Shown here: positions 1,659 to 6,419 of the stretch, in pieces
How positions within the stretch are numbered: the first letter of the stretch is position 1
Layout of the letters: the number at the start of each line of letters is the position of its first letter
DNA from: a virus
Taxonomy: Duplodnaviria > Heunggongvirae > Uroviricota > Caudoviricetes
IMG/VR virus record: IMGVR_UViG_2541047783_000005
Length of the DNA: 45,972 nt
Direction: 5' to 3' (one strand)
Notes under the pieces: generated by a model
Told to the model about the DNA's origin: nothing
The model's input: the letters and a program-made list of their open reading frames with translations, nothing else
Database searches by the model: none
Position numbers and translations under genes: made by a program

Positions 1659-4130
1659 TTAAGAATCAGCCTGACTCGGGATCAGTTTTTGCCAGATAAC
1701 TGAAACGTATTTTGCCTGGTAACGGGCGTCATCAAGTGCATTATGGCGCTCACCTTCGAATTGAATAGCCGTTCTGGCATCGAAGTCTATGGCTTTCCCC
1801 AGCTCAACGATTGTGCGTACATCGCGATCGTTGTAGTAACGCCACGGGCAGGGGATCCCCTGCCGTTCGTATGAACGGCGCAAAATCGTGTTGTCGAAGT
1901 TGGCTCCATTTCCCCAGACCTGAACAAAAAATTCACCGGAGTTTTCGTCGATAAATTCCCGCAATTGTAACAGTGCATCATCTAACGGGATTTCATCGGT
2001 CATAATGGCAGATTGCGCTTCGCGTGATTGCTTAAACCACCATTTAATGGTGTCCCGATCAATGACTCCGCCAGCAGTTTCCAGATCGATAGTCTTAATA
2101 AATTCCGGTCCCATATCTCCGGTTTGCGGATCGAAAAATATTGCACCTATTGAGATGATCGGGGCATCAGGATTTTTTCCCATGGTTTCAAGGTCGATCA
2201 TTAGATGGTCACACGTCCTGCTGGTGGATGTGATTTCGTGATGACCGTTCACCTTAATTGAGTGATCTGCCGTCTCGCCAGTTTCATTATCGCTATCGTG
2301 ATGCTGATTGCCGCCAGTGTTCTCCTTGTGTGGATGTTCAGCGCCTTCCATTTTCTCCGGATCATCTTCCTGAACTTCAACCTGATACTCTTCATCGAAT
2401 GTTTCCTGGTATGTTGCGTCGCCCATTACCGCGCCACAATCAGGGCAGTTGCCGCCGCCGGTCTGACCGCAGGCGGTGCAGACTTTTTCCACTTCCTGTT
2501 GCGCCACTGATTCAGGCTGTTTCGTTTCTGGCTCGTTTTGTAACGCATTTGGGCTGTTTTGTTCCGCTTTTTGGTAGTTCCGTTCCGATTCATGCTGGTT
2601 CTGGTTCACAGAATCGCGGGTCTGGATCCCCTTAACCCATTTCGGATCATTCGGGTCACTAATCCCTTCAACAAATTCACCACGTGATGCAGCAAGCAAC
2701 TTATCGGCGTCAGGCTGGATGATATTGGCTGCCTGCATAATTTTGTTTACTTCGTCAGCGGTAACTTTTATCGGCTCTGGTTGTTCTGAATCTTCAGCGG
2801 TATCTACATTTTGCGGTAAGCCCGTGTATGTGCCATTTTTTCGGGCAAAATATTCTTCTTTTGTGATTTCAGTGGCGCCAGCAGCCAGTGCCTTATCCAG
2901 ACCAGAAAGTTTGTTTGCGCGACCGTATTTTTCTCCGTCCTTATCTGCGAAGAGGAAATAGAACGGCCCCTCACGCTCTACAGATGGTTCAGCTTCCGGC
3001 GCGGTTTCATTTTTTGGGATATCAGATACCTCAGTTTCCACTGCATCAGTTTGTGTTTCTGATGACTGGAGAACATCAACAGTGCCCAGGTCTGTTTCTT
3101 CATTCTCAAACACGCCCTTTGTCGTCAGGTATTCGCAGATATATTTGTTCAGTGCTACGGGATCTTTGTGAATGTCGATCGGACGTTCACGGACAAGGCC
3201 AAAAATAGTTTGGCGGTCGTAGCGAAGGGCATCAGGCTGTTTGCGCATTGATGCCGAGATACGCTTCCAGTCTTCGCGGTCGTTATCGATAACTTCATTT
3301 TTTGCCCAGCGATGGATGCTGCCGTCAATGTTTCCGGCATCCACATCACCAGGCCAGAGAGCGTAGGCCAGTTCGTCATCCAGTGTTTTCCATGTCTGCT
3401 TGTATTCGCGATGAATGGCAGCAATGACCGGGCTGATTTTTCCTGTTGAATTTTCAGTGTACTGTTGATTGGCTCTGGCGCGGGCGAGATCAACAACAGA
3501 CGTGTATTTTCCGGTTTCCTTGCGTTCACCTTCGCGACGTTTTTTCCAGATGCGCATCTCTGCCTGAATTTCGGGCCATTTAGCACCAGGAATACATTTA
3601 TGCTTAACCCACCCAATGGCGTGCAACTTAAGCTCCGGATACATGGCGTTAACTTCTGGCATTTTCATCAACGCTTCAACGATATGTCCGTCGAATGTTG
3701 CCATGTCTTCCTGCAACAATTCCTGTGCGCTAATAACCATATCAACGGTGATGTTTTCACATGTGTCGAACTTAACCATGACAGCGTTCTGTACTTCAGG
3801 GGCCAGCTTGTCAAAAGTGACGTTCATCGGATCGGATTCAGTCTCAACCGGGACAAAAGAAGCAGACTCCTCATCCCAGCGGTTTTCCTGCATATATTCA
3901 GCATCCCATGAATCGAGGGCAGGGCGGGGTATGCCAGGTTTATCCTCGCAGACAATAAATTTATAAGCGCAGTCCTGAGCAGCCGGATAATGTTCCAGGA
4001 ATTGCCAGTGAAATTTTGCTCGAGCACGGCGTTCGTCGCCAGCTTCAATGGCTGTGGCTACAGCCACAGCGCCTTCTTCCCTTGTTGCCAGTTCGTCAGG
4101 AATAGCGGCGCAAATAAAGACTTTACTCAT
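1659..4130 (-). CDS. Large phage exonuclease (823 aa) with C-terminal DEDDh (DnaQ-like) 3'-5' exonuclease domain
   Basis: C-terminal 190 aa show the three exonuclease motifs (MIDLETMG; WGNGANFDNTIL; HNALDDARYQAKY). N-terminal ~600 aa are acidic and of unclear function, with a CxxC...CxxC cluster (CTACGQTGGGNCPDCGA). Sits where ydfE lies in K-12 Qin. Confidence 0.7.
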   Translation of the reverse strand: MSKVFICAAIPDELATREEGAVAVATAIEAGDERRARAKFHWQFLEHYPAAQDCAYKFIVCEDKPGIPRPALDSWDAEYMQENRWDEESASFVPVETESDPMNVTFDKLAPEVQNAVMVKFDTCENITVDMVISAQELLQEDMATFDGHIVEALMKMPEVNAMYPELKLHAIGWVKHKCIPGAKWPEIQAEMRIWKKRREGERKETGKYTSVVDLARARANQQYTENSTGKISPVIAAIHREYKQTWKTLDDELAYALWPGDVDAGNIDGSIHRWAKNEVIDNDREDWKRISASMRKQPDALRYDRQTIFGLVRERPIDIHKDPVALNKYICEYLTTKGVFENEETDLGTVDVLQSSETQTDAVETEVSDIPKNETAPEAEPSVEREGPFYFLFADKDGEKYGRANKLSGLDKALAAGATEITKEEYFARKNGTYTGLPQNVDTAEDSEQPEPIKVTADEVNKIMQAANIIQPDADKLLAASRGEFVEGISDPNDPKWVKGIQTRDSVNQNQHESERNYQKAEQNSPNALQNEPETKQPESVAQQEVEKVCTACGQTGGGNCPDCGAVMGDATYQETFDEEYQVEVQEDDPEKMEGAEHPHKENTGGNQHHDSDNETGETADHSIKVNGHHEITSTSRTCDHLMIDLETMGKNPDAPIISIGAIFFDPQTGDMGPEFIKTIDLETAGGVIDRDTIKWWFKQSREAQSAIMTDEIPLDDALLQLREFIDENSGEFFVQVWGNGANFDNTILRRSYERQGIPCPWRYYNDRDVRTIVELGKAIDFDARTAIQFEGERHNALDDARYQAKYVSVIWQKLIPSQADS

Positions 4131-4223
4131 TTTGTTTTAACCTCATGACAGATTTAAGGATGAACAAATCCCTGCCATTGCTGGCATATAAGAATGAAAC
4201 CGGATATTTATTACGGAACTGTT

Positions 4224-4415
4224 TTAAAGACCTGCCGGGATTTCGATATTATACTGGTGAATAACTTTATCGACCGGGTAACAGTTACCGGGAATTTTCT
4301 GTTCGGTTGCTGCAGTCATACACTCCTGCATTGTCCTGTGAACACTGACTGCAATATCAACTGGCTCTCCGGAAACAAGAAAAACTGTCAGAACAAGCGC
4401 AAATGCTGAATTCAT
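4224..4415 (-). CDS. ydfD: YdfD-like small protein (63 aa)
   Basis: Internal start of ORF 4224..4469 gives MNSAFALVLTVFLVSGEPVD..., matching my recollection of Qin YdfD; start overlaps the dicB stop. Confidence 0.65.
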   Translation of the reverse strand: MNSAFALVLTVFLVSGEPVDIAVSVHRTMQECMTAATEQKIPGNCYPVDKVIHQYNIEIPAGL

Positions 4416-4600
4416 TGTGCACATCCTTTTGGCATCAGACGTAAACGAGCCAGCATTGAAACAATGCATATTTTATTTAATAGCTCCCGTTCTTGTTTTC
4501 TCTTGTTAATGGCATCTTCAGTAAATACAGGGTTACTGATAGTGACACCAATTTCAAAACAACCTTCAGACGTATTAACGTTTGGTAATAACGTTTTCAT
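4412..4600 (-). CDS. dicB: DicB cell-division inhibitor (62 aa)
   Basis: Internal Met of ORF 4412..4705 gives MKTLLPNVNTSEGCFEIGVTISNPVFTED...MPKGCAQ, which I recognise as DicB; lies directly downstream of dicF as in Qin. Confidence 0.7.
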   Translation of the reverse strand: MKTLLPNVNTSEGCFEIGVTISNPVFTEDAINKRKQERELLNKICIVSMLARLRLMPKGCAQ

Positions 4601-4769
4601 TATCGCGTCCTCAACAATGAATTTTGTGATGCAGTGCCTGGTGCCTCCAGGTGACGTTAACCAGTTAACAATTAACGCCGGATACAGAGAATCCACCCAT
4701 AACACTGTTTTTGGTTTTAACTGTTCCGCGTGCGCTTAGCCGCATTCACCGCATCACAAAATTCACTTT

Positions 4770-4827
4770 AAAAACGGCGGCAGAGCAGTCACGGAGTAAA
4801 ACTGATACCGCCAAACGTCACCAGAAA
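4770..4827 (-). ncRNA. dicF: DicF small RNA (ftsZ-targeting), with 3' hairpin and U-tract
   Basis: Minus-strand sequence UUUCUGGUGACGUUUGGCGGUAUCAGUUUUACUCCGUGACUGCUCUGCCGCCGUUUUU matches the DicF sequence as I remember it; located between ydfBC and dicB. Confidence 0.65.
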
Positions 4828-5086
4828 ATTGATAACAGAGGGCGTTGCAGCGGGGTTGTCGCTTAAGCGTATGGTCAACCTGACAACTCGGTGTCCTCAA
4901 CGGGGAAGGAATAACCCCGCCATACTTACCGCCGCGCCATTTCGCGGGTTGCCACAACCGGAAGCGCACGGTCGAATTAAATTTGACGACACCGTACAGT
5001 GAGACGAACTTCGCCGTGCGCTTTCGTGTTGTGTGCCTGCTTTTAACCACGTCAGGCGAGGTGGTATCCTTAAAATCACCACAGTT

Positions 5087-5662
5087 TTAAGGATTCATTA
5101 AGCAATGTCGCAACCACCAATAAATCCGCTTAAGAACATGAAAATTGATTACTGGTATAAAGCGCTTACAGTTGTTGGCGCTGCGTTGTTTGTCTTTAAT
5201 GGAACGTCTTTTTTTGACAGATATCCCGTTGTTCCATTGGTTTTTTTGTCCTCCGGCATCTTTTTTATTGGTTTGGGGGAGTGGATTAATCACCCTCTCA
5301 AAGTGAGATTTATTGGTCCTGGAGTTTGGACTCGTGGATATAATCGTTCTTCGTGCGCACTCGGTATCATCTTCGACATACTTGGTTGTTTCCTGATTGT
5401 TACAGGAGTCGTCAAGTTCTTCTGATGTAAAACCGCAAATGGGGCACGTAACGGGAATTTTGAAAAGCGTTTCTCCGGGTTCCAGAACAAAATTTTCTGC
5501 GGTCTGATTTTGCTTCTCATATTTGTGCTCCGCGTCATTGTGAGAGCGCATTCTTATTCTGAGTGCCTGTTTAAACTCACTGAAGCTGAGAGCTTCTTCG
5601 CCTTCGGCAAGGCCTTCGAAGTATTCTTCGTAAGCCTTTTCCATGATTGTGTCGAAATCCAT
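5087..5662 (-). CDS. YdfB/YdfC-like protein with CPICGF zinc-ribbon motif; 3' extent uncertain
   Basis: Internal start MDFDTIMEKAYEEYFEG... from ORF 5087..5704. The C-terminal third is Lys/Asn-rich and low-complexity and overlaps an antisense membrane-protein ORF. Confidence 0.4.
   Translation of the reverse strand: MDFDTIMEKAYEEYFEGLAEGEEALSFSEFKQALRIRMRSHNDAEHKYEKQNQTAENFVLEPGETLFKIPVTCPICGFTSEELDDSCNNQETTKYVEDDTECARRTIISTSPNSRTNKSHFERVINPLPQTNKKDAGGQKNQWNNGISVKKRRSIKDKQRSANNCKRFIPVINFHVLKRIYWWLRHCLMNP
5105..5425 (+). CDS. Possible small membrane protein (106 aa, about 3 TM segments), antisense to the ydfBC tail
   Basis: Hydrophobic segments (ALTVVGAALFVF; VVPLVFLSSGIFFIGLG; ALGIIFDILGCFLIVTGV); AAGGA-like RBS about 9 nt upstream of the ATG. 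Confidence 0.3.
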   Translation: MSQPPINPLKNMKIDYWYKALTVVGAALFVFNGTSFFDRYPVVPLVFLSSGIFFIGLGEWINHPLKVRFIGPGVWTRGYNRSSCALGIIFDILGCFLIVTGVVKFF

Positions 5663-5663
5663 A

Positions 5664-5819
5664 TCACTCACCTGAGTTTCTTTCCAGCCAGCGACGGGCA
5701 CCATTTTCGGTTTTAAACGTTTTGCTTTTGGTATACGTCATTGCGGTGAACGTGCCGTCCTGGTTTGGAAACACGCCGTACACCAGAGATTCGTTGTTGC
5801 CAAGATCGATAGTATCCAT
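5664..5819 (-). CDS. ydfA: YdfA-like protein (51 aa)
   Basis: Internal start gives MDTIDLGNNESLVYGVFPNQDGTFTAMTYTKSKTFKTENGARRWLERNSGE; first gene of the dicB operon. Confidence 0.6.
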   Translation of the reverse strand: MDTIDLGNNESLVYGVFPNQDGTFTAMTYTKSKTFKTENGARRWLERNSGE

Positions 5820-6011
5820 GCTGACCTCATTTCCCCTTAACGCCGGGGTAGCGGAACTGTTTGCTGAGAACACCGTGCGGTGTGTTGATGGAGGTAATTT
5901 AGTTTTCTCATTATTTTTCGTCAAGGCTTTTTGATGAGAAAACTCAAGTATTGGCGCAAGATAAAGCCAATACATTGAAATGTAAGGCTTTAAAATTTTG
6001 TGAAGGGATGA

Positions 6012-6419
6012 TTATTGATGCTTGTTGCGTTTGCGAGCCTCTAATAGCTCGGTGAACAGGCGATTAAAATTCTCAACGCGGGCGCGGAGTTCGCTGAGTT
6101 GTGCTTGTTGCTCTGATTTAGGAAGTGCGCGATACAAACGCAGCATCTCTAACTCATCTTCCGATAAGTCTAAGGCACTATCGAGTGAAACAGGGGGAGC
6201 TGGTGTTTTGTCCTCGTCGCCAAACAGTATCCAGGTTGGTGAACATTGCAATACCTCGGCGAGGCGATGCAAATTTTGCCCGCGCGGGGCTGTATGGTCA
6301 CTTTCCCATAATGAAATTGATGAGCCAGATACGCCAGCAGCTTTGCTTAAACCGTTTTGACTTAAACCTACCTGCTTACGTCTTTCTCTAATGCGTTGAC
6401 CTAAAGTTTTCTCGTTCAT
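6012..6419 (-). CDS. dicA: DicA-like HTH (XRE-family) repressor, no peptidase domain
   Basis: 135 aa from internal Met (MNEKTLGQRIRERRKQVGLSQ...); central LQCSPTWILFGDEDK motif; divergent from a Cro-like gene. Confidence 0.8.
   Translation of the reverse strand: MNEKTLGQRIRERRKQVGLSQNGLSKAAGVSGSSISLWESDHTAPRGQNLHRLAEVLQCSPTWILFGDEDKTPAPPVSLDSALDLSEDELEMLRLYRALPKSEQQAQLSELRARVENFNRLFTELLEARKRNKHQ

Follow-up and report, generated by a model that had tools for sequence, protein, structure and literature searches.

The stretch of DNA analyzed here (the window, 45,972 nucleotides of one strand, from the Caudoviricetes virus record IMGVR_UViG_2541047783_000005 of IMG/VR) carries, in a Qin-like dicBF operon, two open reading frames (ORFs) that lie on opposite strands of the same DNA. 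The long minus-strand ORF occupies 5087..5704 and encodes 205 amino acids from its first ATG, or 191 amino acids from the RefSeq start at 5662, which is the ATG of ydfB (WP_000344958.1). The plus-strand ORF at 5105..5425 encodes a membrane protein of 106 amino acids with the motifs NPL, IDYWYKA, and GLGEWINHP. The original prediction, made from the letters of the window, had described both frames at these positions and had credited the plus ORF with a good ribosome-binding site (RBS) and three hydrophobic segments. Both frames were found where described, the sequence AAGGA is present at 5089–5093, 11 nt before the plus ATG, and the hydrophobic segments correspond to AlphaFold2 helices at residues 17–32, 42–62, and 85–105 (predicted local distance difference test, pLDDT, of 84.5). 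Plausible start signals thus precede both ORFs, since the minus ORF uses the ydfB start, which is coupled to ydfA. Signatures of coding selection are also found on both strands, namely in the substitution pattern of the plus frame and, for the minus frame, in a conserved head and in the purging of stop codons from the overlap. By comparison with its relatives, the locus looks like a two-strand gene pair rather than an annotation accident.

The surroundings of the pair are those of the Qin prophage of Escherichia coli K-12. A gene for a DicA/CI-like helix-turn-helix (HTH) repressor (6012..6419, minus strand, RefSeq annotation) is convergent with the membrane-protein gene. A promoter-like site, TTGACG-17-TAAATT (5896..5924, minus strand, consensus scan only), separates this gene from ydfA, as in K-12, at the place expected for the dicB-operon promoter. 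The first gene of the early operon is ydfA (DUF1391; 5664..5819, minus strand; Pfam PF07151, E=1.5e-27, and RefSeq). Downstream of the overlapping pair, the minus transcript reaches the gene of the DicF small RNA (4775..4826, minus strand; Rfam RF00039, 72.5 bits, E=2e-15), and dicB, ydfD, and a large exonuclease gene are also present. The repressor, the promoter region, ydfA, the ydfB head, DicF, DicB, and YdfD are 97–99% identical to K-12 Qin. Homology to K-12 covers 4001–5044 and 5562–5890 and is broken by 517 bp at 5045–5561, a mobile cassette with coding content on both strands (the two-strand module). Compared with the ydfA-ydfB-ydfC-dicF-dicB operon of K-12 Qin (PMC5069750), the operon frame is shared, and ydfC and the last eight codons of ydfB are replaced by the module. 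The K-12 interval itself contains ydfA, ydfB (42 amino acids), and ydfC (72 amino acids), in agreement with the statement in the original prediction that only the small genes ydfB and ydfC are found there.

The minus frame had been called "ydfB/C-like". This description holds for its first ~48 residues, which match positions 1–46 of 54 of PHROG 2061 (E=3e-30), and fails for YdfC, as the minus translation contains no YdfC-like stretch and the window lacks any equivalent of K-12 2149–2544 of L003, the interval with ydfC. Where K-12 YdfB ends in ...KQALSSSAKSNG*, the frame of the window runs on as ...KQALRIRMRSH..., with 157 unrelated residues appended to the YdfB head. From its sequence, the minus ORF appears as a YdfB-headed fusion that is neither a YdfB nor a YdfC. 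It is a mosaic of three parts: the ydfB-derived head (5562..5662, minus strand; 99.4% identical to K-12 Qin down to 5562), joined in frame to the module ORF; the N-terminal segment of the module ORF (5426..5551, minus strand), with a Met codon at 5551–5549 and a CPICG knuckle at 5446–5432; and a read-through tail of 108 codons (5087..5425, minus strand, with its TAA at 5089–5087), which reads the membrane gene backwards over its entire length and five codons more. The module ORF has been joined to the 48 ydfB codons accidentally. In other E. coli prophages (P0067, P0069, and P0071), the module is placed between the ydfA start and ydfC; the minus ORF there starts at the RBS of ydfA and continues in frame across the antisense tail as far as YdfC, giving 245–271 amino acids.

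The cassette is present in 806 of 5426 complete E. coli genomes (~15%), in 784 of them at an identity of at least 99%. Among 60 sampled RefSeq E. coli records with the cassette (H36–H95), only the minus strand is annotated and the membrane gene in none, because the longer ORF of the opposite strand is called instead. The RefSeq labels are inconsistent: the window allele is a 191-amino-acid "hypothetical protein", and the majority allele, 99.6% identical, is a "ydfB pseudogene, missing C-terminus". Phage HannyBb (PP925841) contains an identical copy of the cassette, with the 205-amino-acid minus ORF annotated, and the minus ORF is identical to PHROG 35040. In the family libraries (Pfam, PHROGs, NCBIfam, and PADLOC), it matches PHROG 35040 and PHROG 2061 only, with sub-threshold noise otherwise. 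The consensus promoter and terminator scan gave no convincing terminator for either ORF, and no report on the locus, the ydfB-fused ORF, the three-helix family, or the pair was found in the literature. Three T runs of 6–7 nt lie within the plus ORF (5209–5215, 5241–5247, and 5261–5266), and two database variants of the minus ORF, P0063 and P0066, resemble single or double frameshifts in this stretch, for which sequencing error or slippage is possible.

The original prediction had left it between one true gene and an overlapping pair. On the evidence of substitution patterns, the plus ORF is almost certainly a real gene. Between the window and relatives at 84–88% identity, the ratio of non-synonymous to synonymous substitution rates (dN/dS) is 0.12–0.19 in the plus frame vs. 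1.3–1.7 in the minus frame over the same codons, and the differences fall mostly on the third position of plus codons (e.g., 11, 7, and 35 at positions 1, 2, and 3). Homologues of the plus ORF (n=60, 34–99% identity, mostly 100–111 amino acids) come from Yersinia, Herminiimonas, Reinekea, Pantoea, Pseudomonas, Roseateles, the phages Bcep176 and mEp390, and many metagenomes; the columns Y16, W17, Y18, K19, and A20, as well as G58, E59, W60, N62, H63, and P64, are invariant. These proteins constitute a previously undescribed family with three membrane helices, found across Proteobacteria, phages, and other mobile elements. The AlphaFold2 model shows a hairpin at residues 65–79 besides the helices. 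Neither the membrane protein nor its homologues have a match in Pfam, PHROGs, NCBIfam, or PADLOC, and no sequence or informative fold relationship to known exclusion, defence, or toxin families was detected; fold and sequence searches returned generic helical matches only, so that the function of the protein is not readable from homology.

Among 50,697 phage records searched by tblastn with the three-helix protein, only HannyBb, mEp390, and Bcep176 were hit. The homologue of Burkholderia phage Bcep176, gp33, is annotated on the strand of the membrane gene and is the sole reverse-oriented gene in its neighborhood. Phage mEp390 gp39 (L005, 2456–2911) is noted as similar to Bcep176 gp33 (L204, 2384–2848), yet it is annotated opposite the membrane-protein homologue, such that two published annotations occupy different strands of homologous DNA. 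Outside phages, genes identified by eye include a nucleotidyltransferase (MNT)/HEPN-like pair in L171 and a Fic-domain-like gene in L006; in L014, the membrane gene is located directly downstream of glmS, beside an IS110-type-like transposase, likewise identified by eye. These three neighborhoods are settings typical of mobile or defence islands.

A conserved element (5030..5098, plus strand) precedes the membrane gene. It consists of a GCCTG/CAGGC stem, the sequence TGGTATCCT, which resembles an extended -10, and an 11-bp hairpin (5066–5076/5084–5094), whose 3' arm contains the RBS AAGGA and, on the other strand, the minus stop TAA. Among the E. coli, Escherichia sp., and Yersinia versions, the element (45–70 nt) is nearly invariant at a protein identity of 51–58%; in the enterobacterial lineages, it is more conserved than the coding region. 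Its folding energy is -24.4 kcal/mol (z = -3.07), and the consensus hairpin was recovered. From these features, the element may act as a promoter/operator, in RBS sequestration, or as an RNA processing site. A tRNA-like reading of the element was ruled out for the window, which gave no tRNA or Rfam match there.

The plus and minus frames are in codon-aligned antisense register (both triplet sets start at 2 mod 3), so that minus stops are possible only opposite plus TTA, CTA, or TCA codons, none of which occurs among the 10 Leu and 6 Ser codons of the plus ORF. For the window alone, the chance of a stop-free minus frame is ~0.07–0.10 with K-12 or prophage codon usage and 0.001–0.005 with the gene's own third-position composition or the codon usage of the immediate flanks. 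Taken singly, the open minus frame of the window is unremarkable to mildly unusual, and it is highly non-random only across homologues; given the former estimate, the window by itself proves nothing.

DNA from 79 loci was therefore reduced to 50 clusters at 80% protein identity. The antisense frame is stop-free in 19 of the 50 clusters vs. 0.39 expected from each gene's own third-position composition, and in 17 vs. 2.46 expected from the codon usage of flanking genes (Poisson-binomial P ~1e-15) among the 41 clusters with enough flanking sequence for a codon-usage estimate. The distribution of stop counts is bimodal: the stop-containing class fits the expectation (17 vs. 14.9, 10 vs. 12.3, and 7 vs. 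6.9), and the others have none vs. 3–6 expected. The Val, Ala, Gly, Thr, and Pro families use codons ending in A with equal frequency in either class (19% vs. 23%), a comparison of which this control line alone is used, as the accompanying Fisher test is circular, the classes being defined by the outcome. GC content as the cause of the open frames was ruled out, with 15 stop-free and 16 stop-containing lineages falling within a third-position GC content (GC3) of 0.35–0.62. Between lineages with less than 62% identity, identical residues show a codon identity of 0.369 vs. 0.382 expected from codon usage; synonymous sites between lineages are saturated, and the lineages are thus nearly independent in their codon choice. 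A neighbor-joining tree divides the family into two halves: the clade of the window, with Yersinia, mEp390, Pantoea, and the environmental 'MDNPLSKLALDYWY' group, is stop-free in 16 of 22, and the other clade is nearly all stop-containing. Together, these comparisons make it very probable that the minus frame is held open by selection.

Stop codons in homologues had been named in the original prediction as the means of telling the two strands apart. In 31 of the 50 lineages, the minus frame is indeed closed (1–17 stops) and the plus frame intact, a verdict that covers half of the family only. In the clade of the window, the minus frame is open far beyond chance, and its non-overlapping part is under protein-level purifying selection, as detailed below. 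The alternative of overlapping genes is, therefore, the better supported one, with the plus ORF as a true gene within the pair.

Immediately before the overlap, the minus frame encodes ...IPxxCPxCG(F/C/H)x, in which the Gly is always located exactly two codons ahead of the complement of the plus stop. This CPxCG head occurs in the window and in L122, L164, L118, L121 (Yersinia), L169, L175, L177, L178, and L008 (Roseateles). Eleven distinct sequences (E. coli, Yersinia, Roseateles, and metagenomes) share it at the identical position, and none of the stop-containing representatives of the first set has it. The codons of the motif differ synonymously (TGC/TGT for Cys, all four CCN codons for Pro, and GGT, GGA, or GGG for Gly), and within subclades the ratio of non-synonymous to synonymous polymorphism (pN/pS) of the segment is 0.11–0.31, with pS near saturation; synonymous variation combined with a low pN/pS shows purifying selection at the protein level on the minus strand in the head. 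A second, unrelated head, M.Y.FFE.L...PGSV.I..E....V.L.GW., also with synonymous variation, is present instead of it in mEp390, Pantoea, and environmental and many viral contigs.

The presence of a head is closely tied to the state of the overlap, which is stop-free in 10 of 10 lineages with either head vs. 9 of 40 without one (Fisher P=9e-6). A second scan of viral sequences yielded ten new head-bearing lineages: seven are fully stop-free, and three with CPxCG have distal stops only, after ~64, 91, and 103 of ~107 codons, bringing the head-bearing lineages to 17 stop-free of 20 in total. In most lineages checked, start codons with a Shine-Dalgarno-like sequence are located 32–42 codons before the junction; the internal ATG at 5551 of the window has a weak Shine-Dalgarno sequence only. 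An exhaustive phmmer search recovered independently called minus ORFs of 141–164 amino acids from distant lineages, with the Cys knuckle at the matching place. A zinc ribbon or zinc knuckle protein was considered and ruled out, as there is a single invariant CPxCG pair and four metal ligands, usually two CxxC pairs, are required. Third and fourth ligands (Cys or His) exist in some lineages and are absent from the window, and the minus ORF has no zinc-ribbon match in Pfam.

The read-through tail behaves differently from the head. The original prediction had noted its Lys/Asn-rich low complexity; the composition (rich in Lys, Asn, and Arg) is confirmed and is the hydropathic mirror of the three hydrophobic segments of the plus protein. 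The low complexity does not count against coding, although the tail sequence is indeed unconstrained. Additional constraint on the tail at the protein level was ruled out: the codon identity at conserved plus residues (0.369 vs. 0.382) is the same as in the stop-containing class. The conserved tail positions mirror plus motifs or the plus RBS, and the tail contains no conserved Cys or His that could complete a zinc site. A folded minus protein was likewise ruled out by AlphaFold2 (pLDDT 44), which gave weak confidence for the knuckle and a C-terminal helix only; the tail is probably disordered according to this model. In a set of 116 near-identical copies of the E. coli type, drawn from viral, metagenome, and genome records, the single-nucleotide polymorphisms of the overlap are 14 synonymous and 14 non-synonymous in the plus frame and 6 and 22 in the minus frame, the latter including two nonsense alleles; a third minus nonsense allele is located in the head. 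These observations suggest that the tail is kept free of stops and that its residues are otherwise free to vary.

The arrangement of neighboring genes is informative about the context in which the frame is open. In all enterobacterial relatives, a repressor gene lies 300–450 bp from the module. In the window and L115–L123, the module lies next to the repressor, in antisense orientation within the left early operon, whatever the other genes of that operon, which include RdgC, YfdP, KilR, Ash/Rha, and exonucleases. The genes of mEp390, L172, and seven other viral lineages, among which both head types are represented, are arranged as cI (HTH and S24 domains, plus strand), cro or YdaS (minus strand), the module, and cII (CP76) or an O-like gene (minus strand). 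In this cro–cII arrangement, the minus ORF comes second in the right early operon, with the membrane gene oriented towards cI. By orientation calls that are crude and ORF-based, the membrane gene is embedded between minus-strand genes in 14 of 20 stop-free vs. 2 of 15 stop-containing lineages (Fisher P=0.0016).

Based on these data, we tentatively favor, at somewhat less than even probability, a reading in which a membrane protein of the lysogenic side is overlapped by a translated ORF of the early operon that is kept open for ribosome coverage. The membrane protein would be made while the early lytic operon is silent, i.e., in lysogeny or during its establishment, from its own promoter in the window and from a cI-directed transcript where the gene lies between cro and cII. 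Its position and orientation would fit a protein of the lysogenic-conversion, exclusion, or abortive-infection type. The minus ORF would be part of the early lytic operon (dicBF-type in the window), with its own start region, the selected knuckle head, and then the antisense read-through. Rho is reported to terminate untranslated transcripts, antisense ones included (PMC11551753). Ribosomes would cover the early-operon mRNA across the reversed gene and thereby prevent Rho termination before the downstream genes, which are DicF, DicB, YdfD, and the exonuclease in the window and cII, O, and P elsewhere. DicF is processed from a polycistronic operon transcript, and the dicBF operon must be transcribed through the region for DicF and DicB to be made (PMC5069750). 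On induction, the lytic transcript would run antisense over the membrane gene and its RBS hairpin and shut the membrane gene off. Such a model would explain stop avoidance without residue constraint, the start signals, why heads are exchanged while the tail stays constant, and why open frames tend to be embedded antisense. That the tail is open for the sake of translation itself, rather than of the tail polypeptide, is conceivable to much the same degree, a little short of an even chance.

Several observations weigh against the ribosome-coverage reading. It leaves the conservation of the head and the stop-free pairs outside operons unexplained: L169 and L008, both with CPxCG, and L171 and L014, with no recognized head, are stop-free yet not embedded, and conversely Bcep176 gp33 is embedded antisense and has 3–4 antisense stops. 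The crude neighbor orientations also limit what the embedding test can carry. In L123, whose membrane protein is 88% identical, a minus stop directly follows CPVC (~3322–3330) and the plus gene is intact. Among the 116 E. coli-type copies, rare minus nonsense alleles occur at 5263, 5357, and 5482, and there are no plus nonsense alleles. The antisense RNA has no strong sign of a Rho loading signature (C-rich, G-poor), with a C/G ratio of 1.18 that is alike in both classes and thus uninformative. Lambdoid phages with N-type antitermination have no need of Rho protection, and the consensus scan found no plus-strand promoter.

Since neither head conservation nor the stop-free pairs outside operons are covered by ribosome coverage, a functional minus protein stays a serious rival, albeit an unlikely one in our estimate. 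Here both strands would yield functional proteins, and the whole minus protein of ~150 amino acids, with knuckle head, hydrophilic tail, and C-terminal helix, would be needed; it might serve as another exclusion or anti-defence factor, like that of Pseudomonas phage Fc02, or might bind the membrane protein or act as its antidote. Purifying selection on the head, the consistent ORF lengths of 141–164 amino acids, the use of two different heads on one tail, and the stop-free frame even where no minus-strand genes follow (L169 and L008) are in its favor, as are the knuckle and C-terminal helix, which have the best, though weak, AlphaFold2 confidence, and the finding that either antisense partner of Fc02 gave exclusion when expressed (PMC9936078). 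It is at odds with a tail whose only residue constraint is that imposed by the plus gene, with the lack of conserved Cys or His for a zinc site, with the pLDDT of 44, and with the shortening of the tail by 4–40% in three CPxCG lineages and its entire loss in L123. A more specific variant, which we regard as rather improbable, is that the tail polypeptide, as the residue-by-residue hydropathic mirror of the membrane protein, is its partner and could bind or neutralize it on induction. As a further alternative, by analogy with Fc02, the two proteins could be iso-functional exclusion factors, one in lysogeny and one in lysis.

It is also improbable that the membrane gene alone is real and the minus ORF a shadow ORF or annotation artefact from a cassette that landed in frame behind ydfB. 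The single-lineage chance of ~0.07–0.10, the minus-frame dN/dS of 1.3–1.7, the low-complexity tail with its predicted disorder, the inconsistent RefSeq labels, the rare nonsense alleles, and the lineage-specific fusion to ydfB are as this reading would have them. However, a non-functional frame open by chance or by codon composition does not fit 19 of 50 stop-free lineages vs. 0.4–2.5 expected, the normal frequency of A-ending codons, the association of open frames with a conserved head beyond the overlapping part (P=9e-6), confirmed in new lineages, the synonymous variation of the CPxCG codons, or the return of stops to the expected level in lineages that lost the head. About equally improbable is a type I toxin-antitoxin-like or abortive-infection switch, in which a putative toxic membrane protein is encoded by a hairpin-silenced mRNA, the antisense transcript is the antidote, and translation of the antisense RNA serves only its stability. 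The small and hydrophobic protein, the conserved 5' hairpin over the RBS, the complete antisense overlap, and, in non-phage contexts, the MNT/HEPN-like and Fic-like neighbors (by eye) and the mobile-element hotspot by glmS are compatible with such a switch; however, a protein of 106 amino acids with three helices is larger than known type I toxins, a PADLOC match is absent, and half of the family lacks an antisense ORF and lies within co-oriented gene runs. The reverse case, in which the minus ORF alone is real and the 106-amino-acid plus ORF is its shadow, is refuted with next to no residual probability. In its favor are the greater length of the minus ORF, its orientation along the operon, and its annotation by RefSeq, in HannyBb and mEp390, and in PHROGs, but the plus frame has the dN/dS of 0.12–0.19 and the third-position substitutions of a coding gene, and its length and motifs are kept at 34–58% identity in lineages whose minus frame contains up to 17 stops.

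Of the systems described, olg1/gene 10 of the B3-like Pseudomonas phage Fc02 comes closest. In that phage, olg1 and olg2 lie on the repressor strand and are transcribed in the lysogen, and gene 10, the second gene of the ner-led lytic operon, overlaps them in antisense; strand-specific RNA sequencing (RNA-seq) detected one strand in the lysogen and the other after induction, and Olg1 and Gp10 each exclude superinfecting phages when expressed (PMC9936078). A repressor-strand gene fully overlapped by the second early-lytic gene is likewise what the cI/cro/module/cII order of mEp390 and seven viral lineages presents, and in both systems one product of the pair is soluble and the other insoluble. 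The sequences, however, are unrelated, and the insoluble partner is encoded on the lytic strand in Fc02, whereas the membrane protein is encoded on the other strand here. Expression and exclusion data exist for Fc02, whereas the module is known from sequence comparison; conversely, deep conservation and stop purging are shown for the module and were not analyzed for Fc02.

Lambda RexB and SieB and P22 SieA/SieB are prophage membrane proteins that are expressed in lysogens next to the immunity region. The protein described here is likewise a small membrane protein with several helices, whose gene lies next to that of the repressor of a temperate phage, and a sieB gene is found in the same slot of another E. 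coli prophage (H7); in contrast, RexB and SieB have no sequence or informative fold similarity to it. Neither RexB nor SieB is known to be overlapped antisense by an early-operon ORF. Type I toxin-antitoxin systems (hok/sok, tisB/istR, and txpA/ratA) comprise a hydrophobic membrane peptide, a structured 5' untranslated region that hides the RBS, and a cis-antisense transcript. The RBS-covering hairpin and the antisense geometry are shared, but the module protein is about twice as large, with three helices, and its antisense partner is an operon ORF rather than a small RNA.

Whether antisense overlapping genes of bacteria and phages are functional is disputed, and most of the claims made for them are based on single-strain expression. 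The examples ano of E. coli O157:H7 (PMC5960689) and the long overlapping genes of P. aeruginosa (PMC8850804) also have a coding ORF embedded antisense in another gene and are also argued from selection; they are described as single embedded ORFs of one species, supported by RNA-seq or ribosome profiling. The evidence for the module is purely comparative, and the module is conserved across bacterial classes and mobile elements, with stop avoidance without residue constraint. Judged by its sequence conservation, the module appears to be a case of antisense overlapping genes at the phage lysis-lysogeny switch that is unusual in its deep conservation and in its selection for an open frame without selection for residues. 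The comparative signal is strong, as the stop purge is bimodal, clade-specific, and tied to the head across Gamma- and Betaproteobacteria and many viral contigs. Stop avoidance without residue constraint points to an ORF whose translation outweighs its product and which may be a ribosome bridge; if confirmed, this could be a general rule for reverse-oriented cargo genes (morons) inside phage operons. If the two products of the pair were instead to act as mirror partners, this would be a natural, anciently conserved case of a protein and the protein of its complementary strand acting on each other. The location at the lysis-lysogeny switch also makes the membrane protein a candidate for a new prophage-encoded membrane function, and there is a gap in annotation, in that Pfam, PHROGs, and NCBIfam contain no family for a conserved membrane gene that ~15% of complete E. 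coli genomes carry, while the ORF opposite it became a PHROG.

At two positions, the window has a minority allele relative to 105 of 116 related loci: T5241 (plus Val46) instead of G (Gly46) and G5548 (minus Arg53) instead of A (Cys). A sub-threshold Rfam match to STnc100 (34.5 bits, gathering threshold 47, E=4e-5) is located at 4568–4777 on the minus strand, between DicF and dicB. In the P22/lambda-like relatives L115 and L117 (2794–2875) and L116 (2802–2875), a phage tRNA gene, Asn-GTT or Gly-CCC, lies on the minus strand ~100 nt downstream of the minus ORF. Such tRNA genes adjoin the module in L115–L117 only and occupy the same slot as DicF in the window, and an untranslated RNA gene thus follows the module in both.

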